Of a stretch of 50,255 nucleotides of DNA, positions 2,343 to 38,332 are shown one piece after another. Position 1 is the stretch's first letter; every line of letters starts with the position of its first letter. Both the position numbers and the translations under genes were made by a program. Origin of the DNA: a phage. The stretch is from sequence record PV636259.1. One strand, written 5' to 3'. The notes beneath the pieces were generated by a model. The model was not told the origin of the DNA, did no database searches, and saw only the letters and a list, made by a program, of their open reading frames with translations.

Positions 2343-2405
2343 CGCATTAACTCCTGATTGGTTATCTTGAATAAGGTCACTTTATCAAATGACCTTACGG
2401 CAATA

Positions 2406-2425
2406 TTAACAAATCGTGCTATTTA
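2406..2425 (-). promoter_or_regulatory. Operator/promoter motif copy (minus orientation; AATAGCACGATTTGTTAATA) overlapping the stop of 2423..2632
   Basis: TAGCA-N5-TGTTA palindrome followed by hairpin AAGGTCA...TGACCTT and the ACCAATCAGGAG leader. Confidence 0.5.
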
Positions 2426-2632
2426 CCAGGGAATATAATCGTCGTCGTCCTCATCAATATCATCGCCAGGTAACTCGAAGTTTGGATTATATTCGCTTTC
2501 TGCGTCCATATCCATATTCCCTAGCGCGTCATCAAGTGTGATTTCTTTATATGCAACCTTGATACACCATTCCGCACTAAGCCCGGCATCAAGAGCGGCA
2601 AAATAACGAGTCCAGAAATTATCCCGTTCCAT
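2423..2632 (-). CDS. Hypothetical acidic protein (69 aa; C-terminal DDIDEDDDDYIPW)
   Basis: Track ORF; start set to the ATG (second codon of the track ORF). Highly acidic C-terminus. Confidence 0.5.
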   Translation of the reverse strand: MERDNFWTRYFAALDAGLSAEWCIKVAYKEITLDDALGNMDMDAESEYNPNFELPGDDIDEDDDDYIPW

Positions 2633-2635
2633 CAA

Positions 2636-2860
2636 TTAACTCCATGAATTAATGTAAATTGAGTTAGCCTCAAGCGTAGCGCGCACATCAGCATCTGTTG
2701 CATTTACTAAGCGCGAGCCTGGCGTGCTGCCGATAACGTTATTACCGTTACGAGTCTTAGTTACCGTCATTGAAATAAAACCGGAAGACTTATCCATTTT
2801 GATAACTACACGGCCTTTCGCGTTCAGGTGCTTGATGATATTCTCAACTTTAATGCTCAT
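2636..2860 (-). CDS. Hypothetical protein (74 aa)
   Basis: Track ORF with AAGGAATTAAAAATG-type RBS on the minus strand. Confidence 0.5.
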   Translation of the reverse strand: MSIKVENIIKHLNAKGRVVIKMDKSSGFISMTVTKTRNGNNVIGSTPGSRLVNATDADVRATLEANSIYINSWS

Positions 2861-2919
2861 TTTTAATTCCTTTGTTTGTTTGGTGTGGGAGTAATATACC
2901 TTACTCCCTGCTGATTGTC

Positions 2920-2939
2920 TTTAGCTATTCGTGCTATCA
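2920..2939 (-). promoter_or_regulatory. Operator/promoter motif copy (minus orientation; TGATAGCACGAATAGCTAAAG)
   Basis: Motif then hairpin GGGAGTAAGG...TTACTCCC then RBS of the 2636..2860 gene. Confidence 0.5.
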
Positions 2940-3080
2940 GTACTCAGAAATTACTTTGCACTCTTTGATTGTGCCGCCTAGAACTACTTTCTGCATCATT
3001 GCTTTTTGATGGCTATCGTAAACGCGAACATTTTTTACGCTGTTAAATTTGCCAGTATAGAAAGTGTGAATATAAATCAT
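2937..3080 (-). CDS. Possible small protein (47 aa), translationally coupled (ATGA overlap with the 3077..3400 stop)
   Basis: Hand-translated MIYIHTFYTGKFNSVKNVRVYDSHQKAMMQKVVLGGTIKECKVISEY; below the track size cutoff; its stop TGA abuts the motif. Confidence 0.3.
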   Translation of the reverse strand: MIYIHTFYTGKFNSVKNVRVYDSHQKAMMQKVVLGGTIKECKVISEY

Positions 3081-3400
3081 TTTTTACCGTCCCAAGTTTG
3101 ATACGCCGTCACCAGGTTGATGCTATGATCGAACTCATCAATGCTTAGCGATCCGATTCGAACCAATTCTTTTTCATGCTTGATATCAATCATCCTGCTA
3201 TATGGATGACCTGGAACGTATTTGAACAGTCGCTTGCTGTCGGCAATGTCGGCATTGATCCCGTAGAATCTACCTACCGCCGCCTTCACGCGCTCCATGA
3301 TATTTTTTTCGTGAATTGCCGCCGCGTTATTCAGTGCCGCAACCGTGCTTGCGTTAATCTTCGGTGACTTCGTTGTGATTTTGTAAGTGTGGTTCATCAT
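3077..3400 (-). CDS. Hypothetical protein (107 aa)
   Basis: Track ORF; G-rich RBS (AAGGGGGG) before ATGATG. Confidence 0.55.
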   Translation of the reverse strand: MMNHTYKITTKSPKINASTVAALNNAAAIHEKNIMERVKAAVGRFYGINADIADSKRLFKYVPGHPYSRMIDIKHEKELVRIGSLSIDEFDHSINLVTAYQTWDGKK

Positions 3401-3414
3401 CCCCCCTTAACCAG

Positions 3415-3615
3415 TCAGGATAGTTTTCTCGCTTCATCAATGATAACAGGCTCGAGGCGCTCAAGTCGAACGCGGAACGTGTTCATAAATCCCTCGTTGT
3501 TCTTCAATAATTCGAAGGCATCCGTAGCTTCAATGGCGCTACTACCCATGTAAGCGATCACGCTCTTCTGAGTCTTGCGTGAGATCGCAACTACGCGGTA
3601 AATATTATCACTCAT
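3415..3615 (-). CDS. Hypothetical protein (66 aa)
   Basis: Track ORF 3415..3699 trimmed to the internal ATG preceded by GGAGG, which removes the overlap with 3608..3979. Confidence 0.45.
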   Translation of the reverse strand: MSDNIYRVVAISRKTQKSVIAYMGSSAIEATDAFELLKNNEGFMNTFRVRLERLEPVIIDEARKLS

Positions 3616-3979
3616 ACAATGCCTCCTTAACGCGATCTGCAATGCATGAGTTGACGGTGATTGAATAGTTAGCCACACCCCATAATGCAATATTGCCAAG
3701 CTCGGTCCGCATTGATGGGTTGTTAAGCTGGATTATTGTCTCTCCAGTATCATTATCAATGAAGCGAGACACGCCTAAATGGTCCATGGCGCGGGTTACT
3801 CGGTTCACGCACTCCATTGCATCACTTACGCCGTAATAAGCGCTTAGAGCGGCTCTCACTGCCTTCTCTTGCTTGTTGTAAATCTTTCGCGCAATGTTCT
3901 CGATCGCTACGTTCTCTTTCTCGTCAGTCTGGATTGCTGTGCTTGCTGAGAAGTCCAGGTCTACGAATTGTTTAAACAT
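3608..3979 (-). CDS. Hypothetical protein (123 aa)
   Basis: Track ORF; RBS GAGGTAATCACC before the ATG on the minus strand. Confidence 0.55.
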   Translation of the reverse strand: MFKQFVDLDFSASTAIQTDEKENVAIENIARKIYNKQEKAVRAALSAYYGVSDAMECVNRVTRAMDHLGVSRFIDNDTGETIIQLNNPSMRTELGNIALWGVANYSITVNSCIADRVKEALYE

Positions 3980-4035: not shown

Positions 4036-4054
4036 GTTTAGCAGAAAGTGCTAT
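4036..4054 (-). promoter_or_regulatory. Operator/promoter motif copy (minus orientation; AATAGCACTTTCTGCTAAAC) with downstream TATAGT and CATCAACAG leader
   Basis: Palindrome TAGCA-N5-TGCTA, then TATAGTTCTCCCATCAACAGAAAACGAGG, then the ATG of 3608..3979. Confidence 0.55.
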
Positions 4055-4498: not shown

Positions 4499-4519
4499 GT
4501 TTTAACAAAAAGTGCTATT
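4499..4519 (-). promoter_or_regulatory. Operator/promoter motif copy (minus orientation; GAATAGCACTTTTTGTTAAAAC) overlapping the stop of 4502..5206
   Basis: Full-consensus motif read as reverse complement; followed by CATAAT and the conserved leader. Confidence 0.55.
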
Positions 4520-5206
4520 CGCGATTGCTTTGAAAAATCCCCTTGGCGACAGAGATCGTATCAGTTTTGTTTTGGCAGACTTGCCGCCTAGCTTGCTGTG
4601 CTGTGCAGAGTACCCGTCAGGCAGTCTTACAGGTTTTCTTTCAGGCATGACAAAATCGTCAGAGGTCCACAGACAAGTTTTCTTCGGGTAAGCATCGCGC
4701 GGCGCAATATACATCGGGAACCAGGGGTGTGCGTCATTCTCTGGAAGATAGCCACCATACTCCCAGGGATTGAAGGAGTGATTTGGTTTTCTCCACGCAG
4801 AAGACAGGACGCTTACCGGATTCTCAATGATGTAAGTCACGCCCAGGCTATCGCCAATGTTCGCAGCAATCCGGGCGGTGGCAACAGCCTTCTCCTGGAA
4901 TAACGGATCGCGCTCACGCTTTCTGGCGAAGTGAGCAGCACCACTAACAGCCAGGTCAGTGCACGGCGGGAAGGCCATAATGAAATCAGGCTTGCCATAC
5001 ACGCCAGCGATAGCATCACGCTCGAACGCTGCGTCAATGAACACGTTCACATACTCAATGTTCGGATGCTCCACTCTGGCATTGTACTTTGCGTAATCTC
5101 CGTGATCGGCTCCGTCAAAGTTGAAGCACATCACCTTATGACCTTGCTTTGCCAGTTCATGACCAGCAAGCCCGGAACCGTCGAATAGTGACCAAATTAA
5201 TTTCAT
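4502..5206 (-). CDS. Short SAM-methyltransferase-like protein resembling the catalytic core of DNA cytosine-5 methyltransferases (234 aa)
   Basis: Order and spacing of FDGSG (motif I-like), FPPC (motif IV-like, Pro-Cys) and IENPV (motif VI-like ENV) match C5-MTase architecture; no target-recognition domain or motifs IX/X evident. First gene of the leftward early operon. Confidence 0.5.
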   Translation of the reverse strand: MKLIWSLFDGSGLAGHELAKQGHKVMCFNFDGADHGDYAKYNARVEHPNIEYVNVFIDAAFERDAIAGVYGKPDFIMAFPPCTDLAVSGAAHFARKRERDPLFQEKAVATARIAANIGDSLGVTYIIENPVSVLSSAWRKPNHSFNPWEYGGYLPENDAHPWFPMYIAPRDAYPKKTCLWTSDDFVMPERKPVRLPDGYSAQHSKLGGKSAKTKLIRSLSPRGFFKAIANSTFC

Positions 5207-5268
5207 CGTGACTTCCTCTTCTGATTGGTTTATGAGCTGGACTATACACGATCTACCCGACCGAGTCG

Positions 5269-5286
5269 TTAGCGAAAAATGCTATT
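5269..5286 (-). promoter_or_regulatory. Operator/promoter motif copy (minus orientation; AATAGCATTTTTCGCTAA) upstream of the MTase-like gene
   Basis: Followed on the minus strand by TATAGT and ACCAATCAGAAGAGGAAG RBS region, then the ATG at 5206. Confidence 0.5.
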
Positions 5287-5471
5287 CCAATAATTGCTCA
5301 TTATTCCATCAATACTGGAATATCTGGAATAATTACGATCATGATTGATCTCGAATGATGAAATGTGATTGTTGCATGGTGTGCAACAGTTGGTTGATTT
5401 GTTGCTTAGATTGCAATGATTGTGAGAGGGTGGATTTGGTGTTACCCGGTTCGCCTGGTGGTCATCTCCAT

Positions 5472-5490
5472 TTTTAGCAAAACGTGCTAT
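5472..5490 (-). promoter_or_regulatory. Operator/promoter motif copy (minus orientation; ATAGCACGTTTTGCTAAAA)
   Basis: Second copy in the control region, about 200 bp upstream of the first in the minus direction. Confidence 0.45.
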
Positions 5491-5893
5491 CGATTACACT
5501 TTAACTTGTCACGATTGTAATATTTGTCTAGAATCGCACTTGTGACAAAATTACGCACTGTGACGCCCCACAATAGACATATGGATATATGTATATATAT
5601 AATATATATAGTGTTTTTTTATTTATATATATAGATAATTATATTGTAATAGTTGTGTATAGCCGTCTTACATTGTCTAGCGTACTGTTGGCATATTTCT
5701 ATCTGCATGTTTATATATACAGTACTTTTTTGAGAGTCATATATTTCTATGTGTACTCTAGACAGCTAGACAAATGTTACACAGCTTAAAATTGGCTCGC
5801 AGGCATTGACGGCCCTGCATTGCGCTGTCACAATGGCAATTGTTGACATGTTATGACACCATTTACACATCAATAGACAAATGAGGATGGATT

Positions 5894-6409
5894 ATGAGCA
5901 ATACCAATCAGGAATTAAAAATCACCGATATGATTCGACTAACCTGCGATGCAATGTACCGCGACAAAGGCATGAATGAGTTCTCTTTCGTAGCTGATGA
6001 TATGGCCCTCGAAGCAGCGCGATTCTACTTTCGGGGCCAGGAAGTAAGCGATAGCGTTCTTGAATCTGCCGCTGCCGGATGGGTGGACCAGAATCAGGGT
6101 GAGGTGGAGAAGCGATTCAAGTCTGCTTTCATTACGCCAATCATTACCAGGCACTTTTGCAAGTATGGCAAGGTGGCAAAGGTGAAGGTGGGCCGGAATG
6201 ACGCCGCAATCACAATGATAACCGTTATCGTTACAGACGAAGAGGTTCCGGTGAAGAAACGCCGCAGCCGGAAAAAAGTTAGCCTGGCCGACTGCCTGGA
6301 TTCGTTTGATGTTGATGTTAGCAAACTATCCGATAGCGAGTTAATGGTTCGTGATGTGAATGAGATCGTGCGCCAGATGAAAGCACATATTGAAAAGTGT
6401 GGACTGTAA
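5894..6409 (+). CDS. Hypothetical protein (171 aa), first gene of the rightward early operon
   Basis: Track ORF; RBS GAGGATGG before ATG. Confidence 0.6.
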   Translation: MSNTNQELKITDMIRLTCDAMYRDKGMNEFSFVADDMALEAARFYFRGQEVSDSVLESAAAGWVDQNQGEVEKRFKSAFITPIITRHFCKYGKVAKVKVGRNDAAITMITVIVTDEEVPVKKRRSRKKVSLADCLDSFDVDVSKLSDSELMVRDVNEIVRQMKAHIEKCGL

Positions 6410-6415
6410 GGAGAG

Positions 6416-6682
6416 ATGAGTATGAGCAAGATTAAGCATGACGCCCTGAAAGGTATCTTGATGCGACTAAACCCAGGCGAAGCATTCCAGCTTAACCCCG
6501 AGACATTCGGGTTCGTCGGCTTCTATAGACTTGGCCTACAGATGAGTTCGCCAGCCGATGAGCTGGTCCGGTATGTGCGAAAGCAGTTCGGCGTCGAGAT
6601 GATTAGTCTCGGAAAGGTGCAAGGCATCCAGACATTCATCTTTAAGCCAAATGAGATTCGTTGCTTCACGCTGATGAAATAG
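6416..6682 (+). CDS. Hypothetical protein (88 aa)
   Basis: Track ORF; its stop TAG is the first three bases of a motif copy. Confidence 0.55.
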   Translation: MSMSKIKHDALKGILMRLNPGEAFQLNPETFGFVGFYRLGLQMSSPADELVRYVRKQFGVEMISLGKVQGIQTFIFKPNEIRCFTLMK

Positions 6683-6698
6683 CACTTTTTGTTAAAAC
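6680..6698 (+). promoter_or_regulatory. Operator/promoter motif copy (TAGCACTTTTTGTTAAAAC) + hairpin + TATTAT + CATCGACAC leader
   Basis: Read directly; the stop codon of 6416..6682 is embedded in the motif. Confidence 0.6.
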
Positions 6699-6754
6699 CC
6701 GACCGAGCGGATCGGGTATTATCTTCTCATCGACACGATACAGAGGAAGCGAAG

Positions 6755-6949
6755 ATGGAAACGCAAATTGACGTAGTGGTTGTTCAGCGCGACTCAACTC
6801 ATGAAAAGGGTCTGTTCAAGAAAGGAACCGAAATCACGATCGACCTTGAGGATATGGTTGCATATCACTCTGGCCTTACCTGGAACGTGGTGCGCGTAGG
6901 CAGCGACTACAAACTCAAAGGCTTTAACACTTACTTTGCGGAGGTTTAA
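6755..6949 (+). CDS. Hypothetical protein (64 aa)
   Basis: Track ORF 6689..6949 trimmed to the ATG preceded by GAGGAAG; the upstream part overlaps the regulatory cassette. Confidence 0.5.
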   Translation: METQIDVVVVQRDSTHEKGLFKKGTEITIDLEDMVAYHSGLTWNVVRVGSDYKLKGFNTYFAEV

Positions 6950-6951
6950 TC

Positions 6952-7419
6952 ATGGCGACAATTACCGTATTCCTGGCTAAAGATGAGATTGATGGCGAAA
7001 TGTCATTCTTCGCGTTTGAGCACAAAACCGGATCGCACTGGCACATGTACAGTCACTACACGGTTATTGATATCAACTCATACCGCGCAGGCTCACTTAC
7101 TGAAAAGCTGGGTTGCTTCATTGGAGCTATCAAGGCGAACAATGGCTGCGATTGTGAAGATGAGCAAGAGCGTCGCATGTGCGATATGATTAACCCGGTC
7201 TATCTTGAGTCTTTCGATCTTGATTCTGATGTGACCATTAAGGTGAGAAAGTCGGGTGAGTTGTTGCCAGGGATGCGTGTGCTGACTGGTTACTCGGGCC
7301 GTAAGGTGTGGCGCACTGTATCCAAGATTCGCCAGCGTTCGGCAACATGCTATAGCGTATTCTTTAATGATGGCTGGAATGAGGTTGCTGGCAGTAACGT
7401 GAAGTATCTTACCAAATAG
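6952..7419 (+). CDS. Hypothetical protein (155 aa)
   Basis: Track ORF; stop TAG embedded in the next motif. Confidence 0.55.
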   Translation: MATITVFLAKDEIDGEMSFFAFEHKTGSHWHMYSHYTVIDINSYRAGSLTEKLGCFIGAIKANNGCDCEDEQERRMCDMINPVYLESFDLDSDVTIKVRKSGELLPGMRVLTGYSGRKVWRTVSKIRQRSATCYSVFFNDGWNEVAGSNVKYLTK

Positions 7420-7435
7420 CACGAATTGTTAAAAC
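7417..7435 (+). promoter_or_regulatory. Operator/promoter motif copy (TAGCACGAATTGTTAAAAC) + TGCTATAGT extended -10 + CCATCGAAACG leader
   Basis: Read directly. Confidence 0.6.
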
Positions 7436-7493
7436 AGGATCGTGGTATCTTGCTATAGTTACCCCATCGAAACGCTTCTTGGCAAACCCAAAA

Positions 7494-7600
7494 GAAGGAA
7501 GCGGCAAACGTAGAACGGAGCCGCGAAAACCTCGAAGCAAAATTGACCTGGAAAAACCCATCAGGAAGGAAGCGGCAAACGTAGACCGGAGTCGCGAAAC
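7494..7600 (+). repeat. Two tandem copies of a ~36-bp element GAAGGAAGCGGCAAACGTAGA(A/C)CGGAG(C/T)CGCGAAAAC (7494..7530 and 7565..7600) in a 220-bp untranslated leader
   Basis: Read directly; each copy can fold GCGGC...GCCGC/GTCGC and carries an AGGAAG Shine-Dalgarno-like sequence with no ORF. Confidence 0.6.
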
Positions 7601-7638
7601 CCCAGGTTAAAAATTACACACCAATCAGAGGATTCACC

Positions 7639-7869
7639 ATGTCAATCATCAAGAACCAACAAGCCATCGACTCAACCAGCCACAACTGCTTTGCTATTTT
7701 CATCACTCGCGACAACAAGCGATTTGCTGTCAGGGCTGTACCGGGTGGATACAAAACCTATATGGAAAATAACGGAAAATGGGTATGCTGCGACAACCTG
7801 GCCAACTTCCTGGTATGGAACGCAGACCTGCAAGGATTCGACGATATCAGCACTTTAATTGAGGAATAA
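7639..7869 (+). CDS. Hypothetical protein (76 aa)
   Basis: Track ORF; preceded by ACACCAATCAGAGGA initiation element. Confidence 0.55.
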   Translation: MSIIKNQQAIDSTSHNCFAIFITRDNKRFAVRAVPGGYKTYMENNGKWVCCDNLANFLVWNADLQGFDDISTLIEE

Positions 7870-7875
7870 ATAATC

Positions 7876-8103
7876 ATGCCACGTTACAGCAACCTAACCA
7901 AACTAATCCGCGTCAACGGGCACATGATCCCGTCTAAATCTACTCACTGCGCGAAAGGCGCAAAGCACGGATTATATTTCAAGTGGCGCGGTCAATGGAA
8001 CTTCACGGCGGTGAGCAATTTTTACATGCGCGTTCCTGGTGACGATCCGCAATCGGTAGTAGAAAACTCAATCGGCGACAACAAGATCGAGGTGCTAAAA
8101 TGA
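7876..8103 (+). CDS. Hypothetical protein (75 aa)
   Basis: Track ORF. Confidence 0.5.
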   Translation: MPRYSNLTKLIRVNGHMIPSKSTHCAKGAKHGLYFKWRGQWNFTAVSNFYMRVPGDDPQSVVENSIGDNKIEVLK

Positions 8104-8206
8104 ACTTTAATACAGTAGCGCTATGGTCTGCCGTCTGGTTCTTCTGCATGGGTCACGTTATGGTCGGCATCGTTGTAATGCTTCTCCTGTGTGCGGGGGC
8201 GTTCGA

Positions 8207-8380
8207 ATGATGCGTATATTTATTTGCATGATGGCGTCGGTCGCCCTGGCTATCCTGGTAGTGTCCGGCTGTGGCGAGGTCAAAGAGCGATGCCATGAAA
8301 CCGGGAACCAGGTTACTACATTCGTGATGGTTGGCAATGTTTTACTACCAATCACATCAAATGAAATCACTTGCGAATAG
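8207..8380 (+). CDS. Small putative lipoprotein (57 aa; signal peptide with VSGC lipobox)
   Basis: MMRIFICMMASVALAILVVSGCGEV...; start set to the ATG after GGGGGCG. Stop TAG embedded in the next motif. Confidence 0.45.
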   Translation: MMRIFICMMASVALAILVVSGCGEVKERCHETGNQVTTFVMVGNVLLPITSNEITCE

Positions 8381-8396
8381 CACTTTTTGTTAAAAC
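8378..8396 (+). promoter_or_regulatory. Operator/promoter motif copy (TAGCACTTTTTGTTAAAAC) + hairpin enclosing GATATAGT + CATCGACAACG leader
   Basis: Read directly. Confidence 0.6.
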
Positions 8397-8451
8397 GCGA
8401 TCATGTGGTTGCGATATAGTAACCACATCGACAACGAACGAGGACGAGAAC

Positions 8452-8940
8452 ATGAAAATTAAATTACTTTGCACTGGCGGTTACAAAGGCTTTACTCGCG
8501 ACCTAGAAGCCGATCCTATTATCGTTGACGCCGTGAAGTGCGATGATAGCATTGGCGGCTACAGAGTCAAGGTCGATGACCTGGTTAAAGCTGGCGTGTA
8601 CGATCTTGATTACGGCCTATCGGTTAGTCCGGCATTTGGCCCGGCTGACTTCAACGAGAAGGACGGAACGATGTTCTTTTTTGAATGGGAAGTCCAGGCA
8701 AACATCAAGCCGCGCAAGGTTCGACTTCTCAACAATGGCGGGTATCCTATGCGCCCTGGTTATGAGAATCGCACGTTCCCGGTTATTGTTGACTTTGAAG
8801 AAATCACTAACAACTTGGTATACGTTAGCCATGAGCACCTGCGAGCCGTTGGATTCGTTGGCGGTATGCATAAAGAAGCACTATGCTTCGTTCGCGAGGA
8901 AATGCACGGTTACTATTCTGAGTGTGAGTTAGTTTACTAA
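8452..8940 (+). CDS. Hypothetical protein (162 aa)
   Basis: Track ORF 8371..8940 trimmed to the ATG after GAGGACGAG. Confidence 0.55.
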   Translation: MKIKLLCTGGYKGFTRDLEADPIIVDAVKCDDSIGGYRVKVDDLVKAGVYDLDYGLSVSPAFGPADFNEKDGTMFFFEWEVQANIKPRKVRLLNNGGYPMRPGYENRTFPVIVDFEEITNNLVYVSHEHLRAVGFVGGMHKEALCFVREEMHGYYSECELVY

Positions 8941-8955
8941 GCACGAATTGTTAAA
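8938..8955 (+). promoter_or_regulatory. Operator/promoter motif copy (variant TAAGCACGAATTGTTAAA) + hairpin + TGGTACAAT
   Basis: Read directly; stop TAA of 8452..8940 embedded. Confidence 0.5.
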
Positions 8956-11120: not shown

Positions 11121-11126
11121 TGTTAA

Positions 11127-29378: not shown

Positions 29379-29380
29379 TA

Positions 29381-32000: not shown

Positions 32001-35000
32001 ATGATTCAAAAAGTGATAAGCGGATCTAAAGGTGGGTCACAGAAGCCTCATAATCCAGTTGAGATGGAGGACAATCTAATCTCAATCAACAAAATCAAGA
32101 TCCTGTTAGCTGTATCTGATGGTGAAATTGACGAAACATTCAGCCTAAAGCAGTTGATGTTTAACTCAGTCCCGGTGCAAAACGAGGATGGCTCATTTAA
32201 CTTCGAGGGAGTAAAGGCTGAGTTCAGGCCGGGAACTCAGACGCAGGAATACATCAAGGGCATGGAAGATAGTTCCAGTGAGGTAACTGTAAATCGTGAG
32301 GTTACTACCGATAACCCATACACGATCTCAGTGACCAATAAAACACTATCGGCAATACGCATAAAAATGTTTATGCCTCGCGGCGTACGAATTGAAAGTA
32401 ACGGTGACAAAAACGGCGTTCGCGTTGAGTACGAGGTGCAACAAGCTGTTGATGGTGGCTCGTTTGAGACGGTGCTCACCGATGTAATCGAAGGCAAAAC
32501 AATGTCAGGTTACGATCGAAGCCGTCGCGTAAACCTTCCGAACTTCAACAATCAGGTAATATTCAGAGTTGTTCGAAAGACTCCAGACTCTAACGACTCT
32601 AACGTTGTTGATGCGATCCAGGTAAAGAGCTATGCCGAGGTGATTGATGCCAAATTCCGTTACCCTCTGACAGGTCTTCTTTTCGTCGAGTTCGACTCGA
32701 AGATGTTCCCAAACCAGTTACCTACGATCTCAATTCGTAAGCGCTGGAAGATTGTAAACGTTCCATCAAACTACGATCCGGAATCACGAACCTACAACGG
32801 CAATTGGGATGGGACTTTCAAGAAGGCGTGGACTAACAACCCTGCATGGGTTCTATACGATCTGATGATTAATCAGCGCTACGGGCTGGATCAGAAGGAG
32901 CTTGGAATCTCCGTCGATAAATGGGCGCTCTACGAGGCCGCGCAATATTGCGATCAGATGGTTCCTGATGGGAAGGGCGGGACGGAGCCTCGATACCTTT
33001 GCGACGTGATAATTCAGTCACAGACTGATGCGTACAAGGTGATTCGAGATATTTGCTCAATATTCCGTGGTATGAGCTTCTGGAATGGTGAAAGCATCTC
33101 GGTAATCATCGACAGACCGCGTGAGCCTGCGTACATCTTCACTAACGACAACGTTGTTAATGGTGACTTCTCCTATACGTTCGCAAGCGAAAAGAGTATG
33201 TACACGACGTGTAACGTGATGTTTGACGACGAACAAAACATGTATCAACAGGACGTTGAGCCAGTATTCGATCGTGAGGCGACTCTGCGGTTCGGTAATA
33301 ACGTAACCAGCATTACAGCGATAGGTTGCACGCGTCGAAGCGAGGCTAACCGACGAGGGCGATGGATTCTGAAGACCAACCTTCGCAGCACTACGGTAAA
33401 CTTCGCGACCGGACTGGAAGGGATGATCCCGACGATCGGGGATGTTGTGGCAATAGCTGATAACTTCTGGTCAAGTAACTTGACGATGAACCTATCAGGG
33501 CGCTTGCTCGAAGTGTCTGGAAGCCAGATTTTCTTGCCGTTCCGAGTGGATGCGCGCGCAGGTGACTTTATTATCGTAAATAAGCCCGATGGCAAGCCCG
33601 TGAAGCGCACAATCTCAAGTGTTAGTGCGGATGGTAAGACTATAGAGATTAACATAGGCTTTGGCTTTCCTGTGAAGCCTAACACGGTATTCGCTATCGA
33701 CCGCACAGACATTGCGTTACAGCAGTACGTCGTGACAAAAATCGATAAGGGTGATGACGATGAGGAATTTACCTACAAGATTACTGCGGTTGAATACGAT
33801 CCTAACAAGTACGATGAGATTGATTACGGTGTAAACATCGACGACCGACCGACAAGTATCGTTGAACCAGACCAGATCCCTAGACCGGAAAACGTGCAAG
33901 TGTCATCTGAGTCACGAATCGTCCAGGGGATGAGCGTAGAAACTATGATTGTTAGCTGGGATAAAGTTCCGTACGCAGTTTTCTATGATGTGCAGTGGAG
34001 AAAGGATAATGGCAACTGGCAAAACGTTCCTCAGACGGCAAACAAAGAGGTTTACGTTGAGGGTATTTACGCTGGCAACTATCAGGTTCGCGTTCGCTCC
34101 GTCGCTGGTTCCGGTACGACTTCAGGATGGTCAAATATCGTAGCTGCTACGCTGACTGGTAAACAAGGTGAGCCTGGTCGACCGATTAACCTTACAGCTA
34201 CGGATGATGTTGTTTTTGGTATCCGTACAAAATGGGGGTTCTCTGATGGTTCTGGAGATACGGCATATACGGAGTTGCAACAGTCACCGGATGGAACAGT
34301 GGATAACGCAAGTTTGCTTTCTTTGATTCCGTACCCGCAGCATGAGTATTATCACTCACCGATGCCGGGTGGGAATATTGTGTGGTATCGGGTAAGGACG
34401 GTTGACAGGATCGGTAACGTTTCTCAGTGGACTGATTTCGTAAGGGGCATGGCATCGACCAACGTAGACGATATCATCGGAGAGATTTCTGTTGATATCG
34501 AAAACTCTCCGGGCTACGAGTGGCTTGTTGATAACGCAACCGACAACGCGGCGCAGAACGCAGCTAACGCAGAGGCAGCAATAGAAAACGCTCTCGCCAA
34601 TGACAAAGACGCGATCTACATGAAGAAGGAGAACGGAAAACGAAAAGCTGAGTACACGAAATCACTGAAACTTATTGCTGATGAGACGCAGGCACGAGTG
34701 ACGGCGATCGAGCAATTGAAGGCGAGTTTTGGCGATCAGATTAGCGCTAGCAACAGCGAATTGCGTGAAGTTATCGCAACTGAGACTGGAGCGCTATCGC
34801 GTGAAATTGACCAACTCAGGGCAGAGATTGGTGATGATATCCAGGCAAGTTTGACTGATATCAGAGAGGCTATAGCAAACGAGACTGAGGCTAGAACGCA
34901 AGCTGACTTGTCGTTAAGCGCGAGGCTTGGGAATAATGAGGCGGCACTTTCTCAAAAACTTGATTCGTGGAGCAATGCGGATTCGACTGGTGCAATGTAC

Positions 35001-35450
35001 GGAGTCAAGCTCGGTCTGAAGTATAACGGACAAGAATACAGTGCAGGCATGGCTATGTCTCTGATTGGTTCCGGAGCTGCGGTTAAGGCGCAGATTTTGT
35101 TTGAGGCATCACGATTTGCCATCATGACTGGAATGAATGGTCAGACTCAGTACCCATTCGTTGTTGAGAATGGCCAGGTCATTCTAAGTAGCGCGATCAT
35201 CAAGGATGGATTTATTACTAACGCCATGATTGGTAACGCGATTCAGTCTAACAATTGGGATGGAAATCAAGGGTGGCATATTAACAAGAATGGTGCAGCT
35301 TACTTCATGAACGCAACCGTAAGGGGTGCTTTGTATGCAAATAACGGATCGTTTGCATTCAACGGGACAAACAATACGGTTCAGATAAACAATAACGGGA
35401 TCACGGTTAACCTACCTAACGGGGGCCGAGTGGTTGTTGGTGTCTGGTAA
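32001..35450 (+). CDS. Central tail fiber / host specificity protein (lambda J-like, 1149 aa)
   Basis: Size and position after I; internal fibronectin-III-like segments; C-terminal coiled-coil and beta-rich tip. Confidence 0.8.
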   Translation: MIQKVISGSKGGSQKPHNPVEMEDNLISINKIKILLAVSDGEIDETFSLKQLMFNSVPVQNEDGSFNFEGVKAEFRPGTQTQEYIKGMEDSSSEVTVNREVTTDNPYTISVTNKTLSAIRIKMFMPRGVRIESNGDKNGVRVEYEVQQAVDGGSFETVLTDVIEGKTMSGYDRSRRVNLPNFNNQVIFRVVRKTPDSNDSNVVDAIQVKSYAEVIDAKFRYPLTGLLFVEFDSKMFPNQLPTISIRKRWKIVNVPSNYDPESRTYNGNWDGTFKKAWTNNPAWVLYDLMINQRYGLDQKELGISVDKWALYEAAQYCDQMVPDGKGGTEPRYLCDVIIQSQTDAYKVIRDICSIFRGMSFWNGESISVIIDRPREPAYIFTNDNVVNGDFSYTFASEKSMYTTCNVMFDDEQNMYQQDVEPVFDREATLRFGNNVTSITAIGCTRRSEANRRGRWILKTNLRSTTVNFATGLEGMIPTIGDVVAIADNFWSSNLTMNLSGRLLEVSGSQIFLPFRVDARAGDFIIVNKPDGKPVKRTISSVSADGKTIEINIGFGFPVKPNTVFAIDRTDIALQQYVVTKIDKGDDDEEFTYKITAVEYDPNKYDEIDYGVNIDDRPTSIVEPDQIPRPENVQVSSESRIVQGMSVETMIVSWDKVPYAVFYDVQWRKDNGNWQNVPQTANKEVYVEGIYAGNYQVRVRSVAGSGTTSGWSNIVAATLTGKQGEPGRPINLTATDDVVFGIRTKWGFSDGSGDTAYTELQQSPDGTVDNASLLSLIPYPQHEYYHSPMPGGNIVWYRVRTVDRIGNVSQWTDFVRGMASTNVDDIIGEISVDIENSPGYEWLVDNATDNAAQNAANAEAAIENALANDKDAIYMKKENGKRKAEYTKSLKLIADETQARVTAIEQLKASFGDQISASNSELREVIATETGALSREIDQLRAEIGDDIQASLTDIREAIANETEARTQADLSLSARLGNNEAALSQKLDSWSNADSTGAMYGVKLGLKYNGQEYSAGMAMSLIGSGAAVKAQILFEASRFAIMTGMNGQTQYPFVVENGQVILSSAIIKDGFITNAMIGNAIQSNNWDGNQGWHINKNGAAYFMNATVRGALYANNGSFAFNGTNNTVQINNNGITVNLPNGGRVVVGVW

Positions 35451-35453
35451 CAG

Positions 35454-35482
35454 AAAGGGGCCGATTGGCCCCTTTTTTTAAT
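35454..35482. terminator. Bidirectional rho-independent terminator (GGGGCCGATTGGCCCC flanked by A- and T-runs)
   Basis: Sits between convergent J (plus) and receptor-binding (minus) genes. Confidence 0.7.
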
Positions 35483-36443
35483 ACATGTTTGGAGTGAAAG
35501 GAATTGGCATTGAAATGTTTATATTGAAGGGAAATTGAGCGCCGCTCTGAGTAGAATAGTTACCCACCCTTGTTCCGGGTGCGCTTCTCACGTTACCGCC
35601 GCTCATGCAAACTCCCTTGTATCGAATGTTATTATATCCACCCGTAACTCTGCATATCGTACCTGTTCTCAGTATTGGGAAAAATCCACCGCACCACTGC
35701 CAACCATCATTTATCGCCATAGTCCCGCCAAGAACGAATGGGCGTCTAACGCTTGAGAAAACGATCTGACCAGCAGGGTTACTCATAGTTATTCCTAGCC
35801 CAGGAGGTGGTGGAGTGTTATTAAATATTACGAGTTGCACGTATACGCTAGCGCCAACGTCATCAATCCCGTTATAGTTTGCATCCCTGCACCATATTGT
35901 ATTGCCGTCAGATTCAAGTGTTACGTTTGGATTATCCCACATACCGAAAGGAACGCCCTGTACTGGCAACTGAGCCTGACCGTTAACCTGAATCCCCCCA
36001 ACAAATGCAGCGCTCATCAATCTGGCGTTATTCGGTATAGCTGCGAAGTTCGTTGAATCGTTAACAAGTATCCCCTGATTTCCAGCTTGAGCGGGGAGGA
36101 TTTCGTAGCAGTTTCCATAAAATCTCATCCTCCTTCCACCGTGCCCGTTAAAATTACCTACCGTTATTCGTCCGGTTGAATCATTTACCTTCTGAAAACT
36201 AGTCAAATAATACACCTCCGGGATGTAATCCATATCGTCTATGTAGATAGCCTGAGATGGAAGGCAAAAAGCAGTAGACCCTGGACTCATTTGCAAACCA
36301 AAATCAAACACCGATCCAGATGAATCAACCCCGTCAGCCTGTATGGGTCCGCACCATGACGGTGCGCGAAGACCCGAAGTTATCTCCATTGCCGGGCGAC
36401 CGTCGTTTAGGTTTATATATATTCCTTGTCCCATAATTACCAC
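35478..36443 (-). CDS. Putative receptor-binding protein (321 aa)
   Basis: Gly/Asn-rich beta-type composition; encoded with a Cor-like lipoprotein gene, opposite to the tail operon. Positional inference. Confidence 0.5.
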   Translation of the reverse strand: MVIMGQGIYINLNDGRPAMEITSGLRAPSWCGPIQADGVDSSGSVFDFGLQMSPGSTAFCLPSQAIYIDDMDYIPEVYYLTSFQKVNDSTGRITVGNFNGHGGRRMRFYGNCYEILPAQAGNQGILVNDSTNFAAIPNNARLMSAAFVGGIQVNGQAQLPVQGVPFGMWDNPNVTLESDGNTIWCRDANYNGIDDVGASVYVQLVIFNNTPPPPGLGITMSNPAGQIVFSSVRRPFVLGGTMAINDGWQWCGGFFPILRTGTICRVTGGYNNIRYKGVCMSGGNVRSAPGTRVGNYSTQSGAQFPFNINISMPIPFTPNMY

Positions 36444-36667
36444 TCTTTAGTTTTGATTGACACCTTGCCGCTAAAGTTGCCCTGATCGTCGTCGGATGAC
36501 AGACCCTTGAATCGCATATCGATTTCGCCAGCAGGCACTTTCTGACCGTCAACGAATCGCATCATGCAAGATCCGTAAGCGTAAGTAACACAGTCGCCAT
36601 TCTTAAGATTCTGAGCGCAACCAGTCAGGATGAACGCGGCGGCGATAATGGTGATTAACTTTTTCAT
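36437..36667 (-). CDS. cor: Cor-like superinfection-exclusion outer-membrane lipoprotein (76 aa)
   Basis: MKKLITIIAAAFILTGCAQN: signal peptide with LTGC lipobox; small size; location beside the receptor-binding gene. Confidence 0.6.
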   Translation of the reverse strand: MKKLITIIAAAFILTGCAQNLKNGDCVTYAYGSCMMRFVDGQKVPAGEIDMRFKGLSSDDDQGNFSGKVSIKTKEW

Positions 36668-37193
36668 TCGTGTGTCCTCGTCTTTAGTGTGATTGCATTG
36701 TATGTCGCATTTACTTTTATTGCAATAGTTCGATTACAATTTTTTCGTGTAACAGGTGTCTATTTTTGTAACCGGGAGGTGTGTTACAAAATCGACCTCA
36801 TTCGACCGCAGGGAGATATGATAAAAACTCTATATAATATATATAGATAGATAATATTTAATTTTAGCTTTATATATATAATTATTGTTGTGTAACAGTT
36901 GTATATCGTGTAACAGGTGATTTGATTGATTCGTCAAATTTCTATCATATTTGTTCAAAATATAATCAATCTTGATTCTATTCATGGATATCTGTGTATT
37001 TCTAAGAAAAAGCGGTTACAAGTATTACGAAATAGACACCACATAAAAACAGGATTAAGCCATTGATTCTGTTGATGCTGATTGTAACTTGAGCGATATA
37101 GACACGCTATTACACACCAATTACATGTATCCGATTGACTAAACGCTGTTAATGGCTATAATGGATTCATCGTAAACGAAGGAGATAAGCGCA
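36668..37193. promoter_or_regulatory. Second AT-rich divergent control region (upstream of cor/receptor-binding genes leftward and the recombination operon rightward)
   Basis: No ORFs; GTGTAACAG repeats at 36746..36758, 36889..36898 and 36907..36919 plus inverted TGTTACAC at 36781..36788; 16-bp TATATAATATATATAG (36831..36846) identical to 5596..5611. Confidence 0.6.
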
Positions 37194-38258
37194 ATGTTCC
37201 AGGTATTCACATCAAGTCAGCTTTCTAATGACGAGTATCATAGCAACGAAGGTTGGGCGGCAGAGTATGTAAGCGGATCGAGCCTTGCAGAAATTTATCA
37301 AACTTGCCCGGCTAACTGGCGATTCAAGAAGAACGAGACTACTAAAGCGCTGGAGTTCGGTACTCAGTCGCACACTAACTTTGAGAGTCGAGATCTGTTT
37401 ACTGCAACGTATGCGCGTTGTCCTGCTCCGTCAGAGTTTAAAGATCTTATTACTTCGCAAACGGCACTGGCAGCAAAATTAAAATCTTTTGGCCTGAAAG
37501 GTACATCCGGTAAGCAGTACCCTGACCTCATCAAAATGATGGTTGATTGCGGTGAAGATCTCAATGTTCAATATCTTATTGAACTGATTGCTGAAGCTGA
37601 GGCGCGCGCTGAAGGAAAGCAACTGGTTGACGCTGATAAATATGATGCCTGTATGAAGATGAGGGCCATTCTTGAGCAAAATCCCGATCATGAAGCGTGC
37701 ATCAATAGCGAAACTGCGCAGCGTGAGATCTCAATCTTCGGTGAGATATCCGGCGTAAAGGTTAAGGTTAGACTTGACCATCTGGACTACAAAGAGAATG
37801 TACCAGGTCGTGTGCTGACTGGTTATGATGAGAATGGAGATCCGGTATTCGAAGACGTTATTTTCCCGGAAGCACTGATTATCACCGACTTCAAAACAAC
37901 GATGAGCGCAAATCCGTTGGAGTTCCCGCGCCTTGCATATAATCACGGGTATTATCTGAAAATGGCCTTGCAGCATGATCTGCTACGACGCGCAATCCAG
38001 GCTGGCGCTTTTGAAGGCAACTTCCCTGAAGATATCCCGATCGTAGTTAGATTGCTTGCGCAGGAGAAAAAAGAGCCTTATATCGCACTGGCTTACCGTA
38101 TGACTATGGAGCAAATCAGGATCGGTCGTAACCAGTACATTAGCGTAGTCCACACTTACAAGGCTTGCTCTGAAATGGATATTTGGCCTGGGTACGCTGG
38201 CGACGCAAGCGAGATCGAACTTGAAACGCCATCATGGGTGCGTTACCAAAATAAGTAA
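37194..38258 (+). CDS. PD-(D/E)xK-type exonuclease (354 aa)
   Basis: IITDFKTT matches the D-x-K-T nuclease motif; followed by Erf and SSB. Confidence 0.6.
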   Translation: MFQVFTSSQLSNDEYHSNEGWAAEYVSGSSLAEIYQTCPANWRFKKNETTKALEFGTQSHTNFESRDLFTATYARCPAPSEFKDLITSQTALAAKLKSFGLKGTSGKQYPDLIKMMVDCGEDLNVQYLIELIAEAEARAEGKQLVDADKYDACMKMRAILEQNPDHEACINSETAQREISIFGEISGVKVKVRLDHLDYKENVPGRVLTGYDENGDPVFEDVIFPEALIITDFKTTMSANPLEFPRLAYNHGYYLKMALQHDLLRRAIQAGAFEGNFPEDIPIVVRLLAQEKKEPYIALAYRMTMEQIRIGRNQYISVVHTYKACSEMDIWPGYAGDASEIELETPSWVRYQNK

Positions 38259-38332
38259 ACGGCACAAATAGCTAAACAAATAATTAATGAGGTGTTATAA
38301 TGCACCTCATACACCAATCAGGAGAAGTTAAT

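Follow-up and report, generated by a model that had tools for sequence, protein, structure and literature searches.

A nine-base word of T1-like phages and its copies joined to ribosome-binding sites

The word ACCA(A/G)TCAG across the genome

The 50,255-nucleotide stretch of DNA analyzed here (PV636259.1; hereafter the window) belongs to a T1-like phage (Drexlerviridae). The motif CCAATCAG found at its ribosome-binding sites (RBSs) is a subset of a sharply defined 9-base word, ACCA(A/G)TCAG, which is specific to this phage family and is kept by selection at the nucleotide level. The word is present in 15–28 copies (about 25) per 50-kb genome of T1-like phages, approximately 25–30 times the chance level, and occurs on both strands, in all frames, within genes and in non-coding DNA. 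Its density (about 1 per 2 kb) is conserved in every lineage and most individual coding positions turn over; the RBS copies, found ahead of a few genes in each genome, keep their positions from genus to genus.

In the window, 14 exact copies of the 8-mer CCAATCAG stand against 1.48 expected and at most 5 in any of 100 dinucleotide shuffles, and a 14-mer pattern allowing up to 2 mismatches is found 17 times against 0.9 expected. Eight of the 14 copies are in sense orientation and six are antisense within long ORFs; the one-base G-variant CCAGTCAG is present 15 times. The first-pass annotation, which had reported seven sites, omitted the sense copy at 5904, the six antisense copies and the fifteen CCAGTCAG copies. 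The A- and G-variants occur 5–16 times per genome each, as compared to 0–5 times for every other single-base variant. Five genomes carry the word at a density of 0.45 per kb, and 160 loci of divergent genera at 0.37 per kb (minimum 0.136 per kb; the lineages compared are statistically non-independent), against 0.015 per kb by chance and 0.04 per kb in E. coli, and loci of non-T1 phages contain about 0.02 per kb after removal of the triggering copy. The copies are split 57 to 54 between the strands, both orientations relative to genes are in use, and the regularity of their spacing is weak and inconsistent.

With nulls built on crude, ORF-based gene calls, CTGATTGG is found in the mRNA sense 6–8 times against 1.2–2.0 expected from within-gene synonymous shuffles of four genomes, while the same shuffle of E. 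coli gives 5 against 3.6; the excess also persists under pooled synonymous shuffles. When all 8-mers of coding DNA are ranked, CCAGTCAG takes first place in the window and, behind the overlapping ACCAGTCA, second place in TH30; the top 8-mer of Samwise is ACCAATCA, and CCAATCAG comes fifth in Klebsiella phage Shelby. TH30 and Samwise have one RBS copy each and keep the full word density.

Five of the antisense A-variant copies, all on the minus strand, are read by the gene as CTG ATT GGT (L-I-G): 19134–19141 in a head-morphogenesis gene (18813–19574), a copy restricted to the Tunavirus lineage; 30944–30951 in a tail-tip gene (30593–31327), here followed by CGA; 35061–35068 in the tail fibre gene (32001–35450), missing from other lineages; 43520–43527 in a helicase gene (42965–44983), also present in T1 and Shelby; and 45199–45206 in gene 44980–45396, whose orthologous position holds a copy in T1, Samwise and Shelby as well. 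The sixth (47011–47018, gene 46782–47183) uses another frame, TCT GAT TGG (S-D-W). The tail-tip copy is retained in 13 of 16 divergent lineages, and its codons 118–121 form the strongest peak of synonymous conservation in the gene, with GGT in all 17 lineages and CTG in 14 of 17. Its sole internal change, ATT to ACT at word position 4, yields CCAGTCAG; this position is also the one that varies in RBS copies. At gene ends, the 8-mer is conserved in antisense copies whose contexts differ.

The G-variant copies in sense orientation are located at 1382–1389 (minus strand, helicase gene, preceded by A) and, on the plus strand, at 14945–14952 (small ORF), 23737–23744 (ORF 23441–23851; not retained elsewhere), 29201–29208 (tape-measure gene), 31430–31437 (ORF 31324–31923; the sole copy with T and not A before it) and 45280–45287 (gene 44980–45396, 81 nt from the antisense copy at 45199). 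On the minus strand, 7282–7289 is antisense in ORF 6952–7419; 16683–16690 reads CCT GAC TGG (P-D-W) in TerL, where relatives alternate between GAT and GAC (32 vs 44 loci), thereby interconverting the two variants of the word; 28771–28778 (tape-measure gene, kept in 3 of 15 lineages) and 39193–39200 (gene 39027–39443) read GCT GAC TGG; 34152–34159 (L-T-G, tail fibre gene, kept in 5 of 15 lineages, synonymous codons varying freely) and 37815–37822 (RecE-like exonuclease gene) read CTG ACT GGT. Word copies other than those at RBSs also lie in promoter spacers: 8968–8975 (minus strand) is antisense, is not an RBS and is located in the spacer of a marbox promoter at 8941, directly before the –10 (TACAAT). 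The copy at 36621–36628 (plus strand, ACCAGTCAGGATGAA) belongs to a 15-mer identical to that at 8963–8977 on the minus strand. Finally, 3411–3418 (plus strand) spans the junction of two minus-strand genes, the minus strand reading CTGACTGGTTAAGGGGGGATG, whose internal TGA is the stop codon of ORF 3415–3699.

Copies joined to ribosome-binding sites

All seven sites of the first-pass annotation carry ACCAATCAG on the strands and at the places reported. The gap to the start codon, given there as 8–12 nt, had to be corrected: it is 10, 10, 10, 11, 11 and 14 nt at six sites, and the site in 9720–9760, with the word at 9733, has neither Shine-Dalgarno sequence (SD) nor start at that distance. On the minus strand, 2354–2362 is joined to an SD (GAG) with the ATG (2342–2340) of gene 1926–2342 (phrog_2684) 11 nt past the word, while 5221–5229 is followed by AAGAGGA and, after 14 nt, by the ATG (5206–5204) of a DNA methyltransferase gene (4502–5206). 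On the plus strand, 7620–7628 and 12055–12063 are joined to AGGA, 10 nt from ATG 7639, which opens a 76-aa gene (phrog_11449), and from ATG 12074, respectively; a 67-aa ORF is inserted after the latter relative to T1, in which the same cassette precedes pnk. The SD is GAG at 25813–25821 (plus strand; ATG 25832, 10 nt), ahead of the tail assembly chaperone gene, and at 38313–38321 (plus strand; ATG 38333, 11 nt), ahead of an Erf-like recombinase gene. The former copy is invariant in Tunavirus and Webervirus, directly adjoins an inverted marbox (25793–25807, minus strand) and lies about 50 nt past the terminator 25731–25760; the latter is conserved in the Webervirus Shelby behind a hairpin of different stem. 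At 9732–9740 (plus strand), where the homology to relatives stops, the usual distance holds no SD or start; a 5-codon mini-ORF (9761–9778, overlapping an ATG at 9775) begins 20 nt downstream and a 77-aa ORF 34 nt downstream, and comparison with relatives indicates that the downstream gene was replaced. The eighth sense copy, 5903–5911 (plus strand), is ambiguous, being either codons 4–6 of ORF 5894–6409 or a sequence 18 nt before the in-frame ATG 5930. Six of the seven sites precede the first gene of a unit, as had been claimed; this placement is not required in relatives, since the copy at 4265 of Samwise occupies a promoterless 19-nt gap between two genes.

Among about 85 relatives, 81 of the 114 unique contexts of forward CCAATCAG place it 10–11 nt from the start codon that follows. 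It also ranks first among the non-terminator 8-mers that precede predicted starts in the window, T1 and Shelby, each taken independently. At the fixed register, 2799 unique upstream regions contain 72 exact and 20 one-mismatch matches, against at most 2 exact matches in each of seven control registers; together with the 14 copies in the window, these counts confirm the observation. All eight positions are constrained at RBS copies. The forward A-variant accounts for 85 RBS copies and the G-variant for none (0 of 51 near-start copies within –40 to –5). The 3′ CAG of the word runs into the GAG or AGG of the SD, which sets the 10–11 nt to the start codon, and forward CCAATCAG is tied to the SD and start and not to the promoter, whose distance ranges from about 7 to about 170 nt. 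The motif adjoins the SD whatever precedes it: promoters of marbox type or of canonical sigma-70 type, a terminator, a 5′ stem-loop or, with nothing in between, the stop codon before it. The 13-mer AACCAATCAGGAG before the tail-chaperone gene is invariant in Tunavirus and Webervirus between diverged flanks, and the same 8-mer is retained ahead of the Erf gene between genera.

Cassettes of about 85 nt, made up of promoter, hairpin and RBS, have the word as their 3′ edge. On the minus strand, the promoter part at 2379–2419 comprises a marbox-like GCACGATTTGTTAAT (2419–2405, one mismatch), the hairpin AAGGTCA...TGACCTT and a –10-like TAAAGT (2384–2379), and the element 5241–5284, upstream of the 5221 copy, comprises a degenerate direct repeat TAGCATTTTTCGCTA (5284–5270) and a –10-like TATAGT (5246–5241). 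On the plus strand, 7419–7459 contains a perfect marbox GCACGAATTGTTAAA (7419–7433) and, exactly 20 nt past it, a –10-like TATAGT (7454–7459) followed by a leader of about 170 nt; 9667–9715 and 11994–12042 contain perfect marboxes (9667–9681 and 11994–12008) and hairpins, AAGGCCA...TGGCCTT and AAGGGCA...TGCCCTT, enclosing a –10-like TATAGT (9702–9707) and TAGAAT (12029–12034), respectively. The hairpin TGAGGTG...CACCTCA (38285–38311, plus strand) carries in its loop an extended –10, TGTTATAAT (–10 at 38296–38301), and lies near a half repeat AAATAGCTAA (38266–38275, plus strand). Homology between relatives begins at ATAGCAC and stops right after AACCAATCAG(+SD), and the same cassette is followed by five unrelated genes and preceded by at least three different ones; since homology breaks at their edges, the cassettes delimit mosaic gene modules. 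The direct-repeat promoter is found upstream in 56 of the 96 RBS contexts listed.

Separately, the 21-nt repeat of the family, aaATAGCACnnnTTGnTAAAA, agrees at all specified positions with the MarA/SoxS/Rob marbox 5′-GCANNWWNTGNNAAA-3′; it is in forward orientation, centred at about –40 (the class II position), with a –10-like hexamer exactly 20 nt downstream. None of the papers searched connects marboxes with T1-like phages.

Recognition word or translational element

The first-pass annotation regarded the motif as a 5′ extension of the SD. The pairing itself is not extended, because the 3′ end of 16S rRNA stops there; the best duplex reaches –9.9 kcal/mol, and 19% of shuffled motifs pair equally well or better. 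The predicted unpaired probability is 0.567 in the motif zone and 0.572 in ordinary genes. Furthermore, the motif has no match in Rfam, and no phage protein was found whose presence or absence tracks the abundance of RBS copies. The translational interpretation is supported in part, by the fixed register to SD and start; for an enhancer, position is the sole support. A purely translational element is insufficient because the word, which is the most over-represented oligomer genome-wide, lies on both strands, within genes and in promoter spacers.

With about 25 copies in each genome, distributed over both strands and extending into genes, the word is more likely a recognition site than a simple translation booster. 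We favor, tentatively and with somewhat less than even confidence in the whole, a two-layer reading in which a family recognition word includes a subset fused to RBSs. The word would be read on DNA, either double-stranded or as either single strand, and the protein that reads it may belong to the conserved core of the phage or to the host. At RBS copies, the binder would sit on promoter-proximal DNA or on the RBS and couple downstream expression to the factor, occlusion or a roadblock being likelier than enhancement. The register may be fixed because the purine-rich 3′ flank of the word is SD-like and must serve as the SD, not compete with it. Against this reading, RBS copies that were merely parked DNA sites should include the G-variant, a register to the start codon that varies by plus or minus 1 nt would be expected of a translational element acting as RNA, and per-site selection is weak on most coding copies (e.g., GAT/GAC in TerL and L-T-G at 34152).

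In an alternative that we consider rather unlikely, AACCAAUCAG would be an RNA element beside the SD that acts on translation initiation at RBS copies only, as an enhancer or as the single-stranded site of a translational regulator; copies within genes or in antisense would have some other purpose, or the same single-strand-binding factor would act on them. C/A-rich tracts upstream of SDs are known translational enhancers, and the strict sense orientation, the gap of 10–11 nt in 81 of 114 contexts, the 72 exact matches at register, the promoterless copy in the 19-nt gap, the invariant chaperone leader, the 8-mer retained before Erf and the exclusive use of the A-variant at RBSs, when the G-variant is equally common elsewhere, all fit. 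However, nothing pairs 5′ of the SD above chance, accessibility is equal, T1 has the motif but not the DUF3850/ASCH 'RNA-binding protein' that the window encodes, the motif-poor TH30 and Samwise retain full word density, and the excess on both strands and the synonymous constraint are left unexplained. Descent and recombination alone are still less probable. Here the motif would be the 3′ end of a cassette spreading via short conserved linkers, its recurrence reflecting the copying of one good RBS and not a function of CCAATCA, in keeping with the homology limits, the exchanged flanking genes, the 67-aa ORF directly behind the 12056 cassette and the frequent direct-repeat promoter. Yet the chaperone 13-mer and the Erf 8-mer are conserved in leaders whose remaining sequence is unalignable between genera, which speaks for purifying selection and against recent copying. 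The sequences that precede the motif are of five or more unrelated kinds, exact matches greatly outnumber one-mismatch copies (72 vs 20), and coding copies are not accounted for. Chance or a by-product of codon usage, with coincidental sense copies and antisense ones derived from preferred Leu-Ile-Gly codons, is very improbable. In the window, in-frame CTG ATT GGT does underlie five of six antisense copies, and E. coli encodes 5 of 16 L-I-G tripeptides in this way; this reading is contradicted by the 14 copies against 1.5 expected, the register matches, both kinds of synonymous shuffle, the 8-mer ranking, the use of three frames and both orientations, and the background level of the remaining one-base variants.

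Comparison with known systems

Translational enhancers located just upstream of the SD include the T7 gene 10 epsilon, the cspA upstream box and C/A-rich or ACA elements. Like these, the RBS copies are short conserved tracts directly 5′ of the SD of selected genes, C/A-rich and G-free, strand-specific and at fixed distance from the start codon; unlike them, they lack rRNA complementarity above chance and a gain in accessibility, are constrained at all eight positions beyond base composition, and belong to a word selected also within genes and in antisense. Over-represented genome-wide recognition words, such as Chi (GCTGGTGG), KOPS and DNA uptake sequences, are likewise specific 8–9-mers in many-fold excess, written into coding DNA by codon choice, with conserved density and turnover of individual sites. 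The T1-family word differs in having no strand polarity, in the subset fused to RBSs at fixed register and in its carrier, a family of 50-kb virulent phages and not a cellular chromosome.

Stoperators are intergenic, one-orientation sites bound by the repressor of a temperate phage. Those of mycobacteriophage L5, cited as an analogy for the T1-family repeats (PMC11447400), resemble the word in number (20–30), in being short and asymmetric, and in their dispersal across a phage genome, where many occupy short intergenic gaps and point in the direction of transcription. In contrast, T1-like phages are virulent and most word copies are intragenic, in both orientations. The cassettes can be compared with T4 promoter-early stem-loop (PeSL) cassettes and lambdoid boundary sequences, since in all of them small variable early genes lie next to conserved cassettes of promoter and stem-loop, at whose edges the mosaic junctions fall. 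The T1-family promoter, however, combines a marbox-like element with a –10 and lacks a –35, the cassettes end 3′ in a specific 9-mer joined to the SD, and mediation of the recombination by the cassettes is putative. The 21-nt repeat, a companion of the word and not the word itself, matches class II MarA/SoxS/Rob promoters in position and orientation and differs in its apparent presence in about 20 copies at most transcription units of one phage; judging from its sequence, MarA, SoxS, Rob or RamA are candidate activators at this repeat.

The word at ribosome-binding sites

T1-like phages are classic phages that are found everywhere and cause trouble in industry, yet to our knowledge almost nothing is known of their gene regulation. 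A megablast search with region 5000-13000 matched 127 phage records, all of them T1-like siphoviruses (Drexlerviridae, Tunavirinae) with about 88-94% identity, and the gene order is the same as in phage T1 (NC_005833): early small genes, terminase, head, tail, recombination, replication and lysis. The comparison genomes were those of T1, TH30 (Nouzillyvirus), Samwise (Tempevirinae) and Shelby (Webervirus), and a further sample consisted of 80 loci anchored on TerL (64-100% identity).

The first-pass annotation had reported a recurrent string ahead of seven gene starts and read it as a translational enhancer or as the site of a translational regulator. ACCAATCAG, the A-variant of the 9-mer ACCA(A/G)TCAG, is indeed present at all seven places and on the strands indicated, and its exact 8-mer CCAATCAG is strongly enriched in the window (14 copies vs 1.48 expected, with a maximum of 5 in shuffled sequence). 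The 14 copies include an eighth sense copy at 5904 and six antisense copies within long ORFs. At six of the seven places GAG, AGG or AAGAGG comes next, and an ATG lies 10, 10, 10, 11, 11 and 14 nt after the word, where 8-12 nt had been proposed; behind the copy at 9733 no start codon lies at such a distance. A position ahead of the first gene of a unit is usual but not required, as the word can directly follow the stop codon of the preceding gene. The genes behind it are diverse and encode a methyltransferase, the Erf recombinase, the tail assembly chaperone and small unknown proteins.

In the comparison genomes and loci the exact 8-mer occurs in 368 unique contexts, 114 of which have a Shine-Dalgarno (SD) sequence, a start codon and an ORF downstream; the gap between word and start is 10 nt in 31 of these and 11 nt in 50. 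The logo of the ribosome-binding site (RBS) contexts reads AA-CCAATCAG-(G/A)(A/G)G, with no conservation farther upstream. When 2799 unique predicted gene starts were scored in a fixed register, 72 exact, 20 one-mismatch and 71 two-mismatch copies were found, the one-mismatch copies differing mostly at position 4, while each of seven control registers gave at most 2 exact matches. Furthermore, AACCAATCAGGAG is invariant in the chaperone leader of Tunavirus and Webervirus, where the flanking non-coding DNA cannot be aligned, and the 8-mer is also kept in the Erf leader, save for one variant copy. What precedes the word is variable. In some contexts it is the repeat-type promoter of the family, either with a hairpin or with its usual leader, in others a canonical TTGACT-17-CATAAT promoter, a terminator or a 5′ stem-loop, and the word can also come straight after the codon that ends the previous gene. 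Therefore, the element is tied to the SD sequence and the start codon, not to the promoter. In relatives with the canonical promoter (locus L061 at 430, L055 at 1895 and L071 at 472) the word lies 13 nt after it. As for the window, its best canonical sigma-70 matches, TAGACA-18-TATAAT at 5574-5603 and TTGTCA-17-TAGAAT at 5506-5534, lie within a non-coding region of about 660 nt (5230-5890) that separates divergent early units.

The RBS register (-10 and -11) is occupied by 85 copies, exclusively of the forward A-variant; among 51 copies of the G-variant (ACCAGTCAG as a 9-mer) close to start codons, none falls between -40 and -5, and reverse-oriented copies are practically absent from that zone. 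Copies at RBSs thus form a specialised subset, stable in position, of a more general word. Their location on the sense strand of the 5′ UTR, within about 20 nt of the start codon, is that of an rRNA-pairing enhancer. However, the SD sequence cannot be extended on its 5′ side by pairing, because the 3′ end of 16S rRNA stops there. When the motif was folded against the complete E. coli K-12 16S rRNA, the best duplex reached -9.9 kcal/mol at positions 1019-1025, and 19% of shuffled motifs pair equally well or better, so that complementarity does not exceed chance and an extended SD or other rRNA pairing is rejected. A role in accessibility, or as a standby site, fares no better: according to partition-function calculations on 90 motif leaders and 250 ordinary leaders, the predicted unpaired probability does not differ (0.567 vs 0.572 in the motif zone, 0.457 vs 0.486 in the SD zone). 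A scan of the whole window at Rfam gathering thresholds gave no matches. No protein of the window is present in motif-rich T1 and Shelby and missing from motif-poor TH30 and Samwise, and the DUF3850/ASCH "RNA-binding protein" of the window was discarded as a partner, being absent from T1.

Overall, the original observation is confirmed and extended, and its translational interpretation is supported in part: position and conservation speak for a cis role at the RBS, but no specific RNA mechanism gained support. Annotators should not take the "extended SD" for a plain SD.

The arrangement AACCAATCAGGAG-N7-8-ATG is also found in true RBS contexts outside T1-like phages, among the matches listed to unrelated viral contigs (L139 at 207-229 and 756-778; L122, L136, L163, L180, L201, L202, L219, L222 and others). 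One unrelated contig group among these matches has gggatagcaaccccg...ttctgatttAACCAATCAGGAGcaaaaaaATG in common, and one 49.6-kb contig holds two copies 550 nt apart. The search pattern itself selects RBSs, and no additional copies of the word occur in these non-T1 loci among the matches listed, which therefore probably reflect chance or local conservation. We thus rejected a general enterobacterial or phage RBS feature; among the matches listed there is no evidence for use of the word outside the T1 family.

A genome-wide word and its coding copies

The word extends well beyond the RBS. In the window the 8-mer core CCARTCAG occurs 29 times, in 28 cases with an A in front, and the copies are distributed over the two strands (13 and 16) in sense and antisense orientation, in all frames and also in intergenic DNA. 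The five genomes (the window and the four comparison genomes) carry 22-29 copies of the core and 15-28 of the full 9-mer each; ACCAATCAG and ACCAGTCAG account for 5-16 copies each per genome, and every other single-base variant for 0-5. The five genomes have a density of 0.45 per kb and 160 T1-like loci one of 0.37 per kb (no locus below 0.136), as compared with 0.015 per kb by chance and 0.04 per kb in E. coli, while 450 kb of unrelated phage loci are at about chance level once the triggering copy is removed. An excess of about 25-30 times chance, with the one-base variants at background, is the profile of a recognition word. No strand polarity with respect to replication, packaging or chromosome ends was seen in the five genomes (57 top vs 54 bottom) or along the window, where orientations are mixed. 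Regular spacing, as known for priming-type sites, is seen weakly and not consistently: the gaps between copies have a lower coefficient of variation than random ones in the window and TH30, marginally so in T1, and show no such reduction in Samwise and Shelby.

The antisense coding copies of the window are mostly in-frame CTG ATT GGT, and a codon artefact was therefore the initial expectation. This explanation was rejected on the basis of synonymous shuffles, both pooled and within genes: the window, T1, Samwise and Shelby have 6-8 observed copies where 1.2-2.0 are expected, with E. coli DNA as control (5 vs 3.6). We also ordered the complete set of 8-mer pairs in coding DNA by their excess over the within-gene null. 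The top pair in the window is the G-variant 8-mer with its reverse form, CCAGTCAG/CTGACTGG (12 vs 2.2); in TH30 the overlapping ACCAGTCA comes first and CCAGTCAG second (15 vs 2.7), in Samwise ACCAATCA comes first, and in Shelby CCAATCAG is fifth and ACCAGTCA eighth.

Selection on a single copy can be followed in an alignment of the tail-tip gene (30593-31327) from 17 lineages below 88% nucleotide identity. The strongest peak of synonymous conservation in the gene falls on codons 118-121 (CTG A[T/C]T GGT CGC), which hold the copy at 30944: GGT is used in 17/17 lineages and CTG in 14/17, whereas the commonest codon at other invariant Leu/Gly columns reaches just 0.3-0.6. The sole change within the word is ATT to ACT (Ile to Thr), which turns CCAATCAG into CCAGTCAG. 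Such positional constraint is not general. Of nine coding sites tested, one is kept in 13/16 lineages and two in a minority (3/15 and 5/15), and the other six are absent from every further lineage; at the TerL copy, relatives alternate between GAT and GAC. Position-specific conservation of the coding copies is hence rejected; selection maintains density more than position, site 30944 excepted, and all 160 loci keep at least 0.136 copies per kb while the individual sites turn over, as recognition words do.

Some of the intergenic copies outside RBSs lie directly after the companion repeat described below, in promoter spacers, and others are antisense at gene ends, where the 8-mer is conserved and context and reading frame differ. 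The reverse word can also provide a stop codon: at 3395-3425 (minus strand), in the string CTGACTGGTTAAGGGGGGATGATG, ORF 3415-3699 is closed by the TGA within CTGACTGG, behind which come TTAAGGGGGG and the start of the next gene (ATGATG).

The word is thus a second family-wide element of T1-like phages, broader than the RBS feature and undescribed in the searchable literature, in which the motif strings matched only primers and eukaryotic CCAAT boxes. These matches arise because the string equals the NF-Y CCAAT box: AACCAATCAG(G) is the optimal form of that box, and its reverse complement CTGATTGG is the Y-box core. The identity is almost certainly coincidental. By inspection, the partner elements required for the NF-Y/Y-box identity of CCAATCAG, for a PdhR/GntR-type half-site or for an IHF core (WATCAR) are missing, and all three were set aside as coincidences.

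The companion repeat, promoters and cassettes

The companion of the word is the 21-nt repeat aaATAGCACnnnTTGnTAAAA of TLS, T1, Rtp and Rogue1, whose function is listed as an open question, together with the mechanism of host-DNA degradation, in the 2024 re-annotation of TLS, which found just three sigma-70 promoters (PMC11447400). In the window ATAGCAC occurs in 24 copies and TAGCA-N5-TGCTA in 23 (1.6 expected). We find that aaATAGCACnnnTTGnTAAAA agrees at every specified position with the marbox consensus 5′-GCANNWWNTGNNAAA-3′ (PMC12052159), and that the window holds 21 exact marbox matches (1.02 expected), for instance at 6682-6696, 7419-7433, 8380-8394, 9667-9681, 11474-11488, 11994-12008, 13491-13505, 41345-41359 and 45396-45410 on the plus strand and at 1905-1919, 4037-4051, 4501-4515 and 5473-5487 on the minus strand. 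The marboxes are in forward orientation, towards the downstream gene, and their TAG is often the stop codon of the upstream gene. A -10-like TANNNT follows exactly 20 nt past the marbox in 373 of 612 unique contexts; relative to the transcription start deduced from it, the marbox centre would lie at about -40, a class II position (overlapping -35, with the centre between -36 and -55). A sigma-54 promoter (TGGCAC-N5-TTGCA) was dismissed on inspection, its spacing being two bases too short. These features of the sequence suggest that T1-like phages drive most of their transcription units from class II promoters of the MarA/SoxS/Rob/RamA type, a link for which we found no paper in the literature searched. 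Were this so, hijacking of the host stress regulators MarA/SoxS/Rob/RamA would tie the growth of these phages to antibiotic-stress physiology.

Two perfect marboxes, at 22027-22041 and 25793-25807 (both minus strand), are oriented opposite to the late structural genes. The latter adjoins the ACCAATCAG of the chaperone and is followed, on the minus strand, by TACGAT at canonical spacing and then by a bidirectional terminator hairpin; it could give a short antisense transcript or indicate bidirectional use of the site.

Inverted repeats are found in and around the 20-nt gap between marbox and -10 at 2385-2406 (minus strand) and at 9688-9715, 12015-12042 and 38285-38311 (plus strand), with equivalents in L035, L033, L110 and L116, and the -10 (TGnTAnAnT) often sits in the hairpin loop. 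By eye, the stems differ and stay complementary (GGTCA/TGACC, GGCCA/TGGCC, GGGCA/TGCCC, GAGGTG/CACCTC and GCGCAC/GTGCGC), which looks like covariation. Several of these hairpins are annotated in relatives as rho-independent terminators, though they have no proper U-tract; they may be combined terminator-promoter elements or DNA structures.

Promoter, hairpin and word with SD make up a cassette. At 9733 and 12056, homology to relatives spans ATAGCAC, the hairpin and AACCAATCAG(+SD) and ends there; the word thus lies at the 3′ boundary of cassettes, and these in turn bound gene modules that can be exchanged. The same cassette is followed by five unrelated genes, the preceding genes differ too, and the window has an extra 67-aa ORF after the cassette that in T1 precedes pnk. 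We take these cassettes to be comparable to the PeSL cassettes of T4: mosaic junctions lie at their ends, and an in silico promoter-like element with a stem-loop (marbox, hairpin, -10) stands before small early genes. Just behind a cassette whose downstream gene has been replaced sits a mini-ORF of five codons (9761-9778: ATG AGG TTT TAT CTA TGA), and its stop overlaps the ATG of ORF 9775-10008; it may serve in translational coupling. The leader of gene 7639 (7460-7620) is about 170 nt longer than that of T1, which has the word 26 nt after the same promoter, and it contains two copies of a unit of about 38 nt, GAAGGAAGCGGCAAACGTAGAaCGGAGcCGCGAAAaCC, roughly 70 nt apart. TRF and Rfam report nothing in this leader, which may have been inserted as a structured element or may be a small RNA.

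Readings of the word

We tentatively favour the reading that a phage or host factor recognises the word on DNA and that in a few genes the word is fused to the SD sequence, which would couple occupancy by this factor to the expression of those genes. The SD-like 3′ CAG and the purine-rich flank of the word would then force the RBS register. Its density, its presence on both strands and in all frames, and the selection seen in coding DNA are consistent with such a site; what DNA recognition chiefly leaves unexplained is that no variant other than the A-variant is used at RBSs. This exclusivity keeps alive the RNA-level model of the first-pass annotation, according to which the RBS copies act in the transcript. 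We consider this model possible and somewhat less probable; position and conservation agree with it, and pairing and accessibility lent it no specific mechanism.

A more far-reaching version of DNA recognition, which we regard as unlikely, would make the word a "self" mark of the T1 family, read on either strand about every 2 kb by a phage or host DNA machine, with the SD-fused genes answering to the same factor. Candidate readers would be a helicase-nuclease modulated in the manner of Chi, a primase, or a genome-wide roadblock or organiser. By such a mark the phage could distinguish or process its own DNA, for instance sparing it while the host chromosome is degraded, and the tail chaperone, the Erf recombinase, the methyltransferase and the first genes of early units would respond to occupancy by that factor. 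A sharply defined word that is under selection at the nucleotide level within genes, and is fused to the RBSs of a conserved subset of genes, offers a concrete point of departure in the search for a new sequence-specific factor.

As for known systems, the word behaves like the distributed recognition words Chi, KOPS and USS in that its density is kept while its sites turn over, but it does not share their strand polarity (57 vs 54). With stoperators it has in common an asymmetric site present in many copies per phage genome; however, stoperators are confined to intergenic DNA and oriented with transcription, whereas most copies of the word lie within ORFs and in both orientations, so that a stoperator-like placement fits its RBS subset only.
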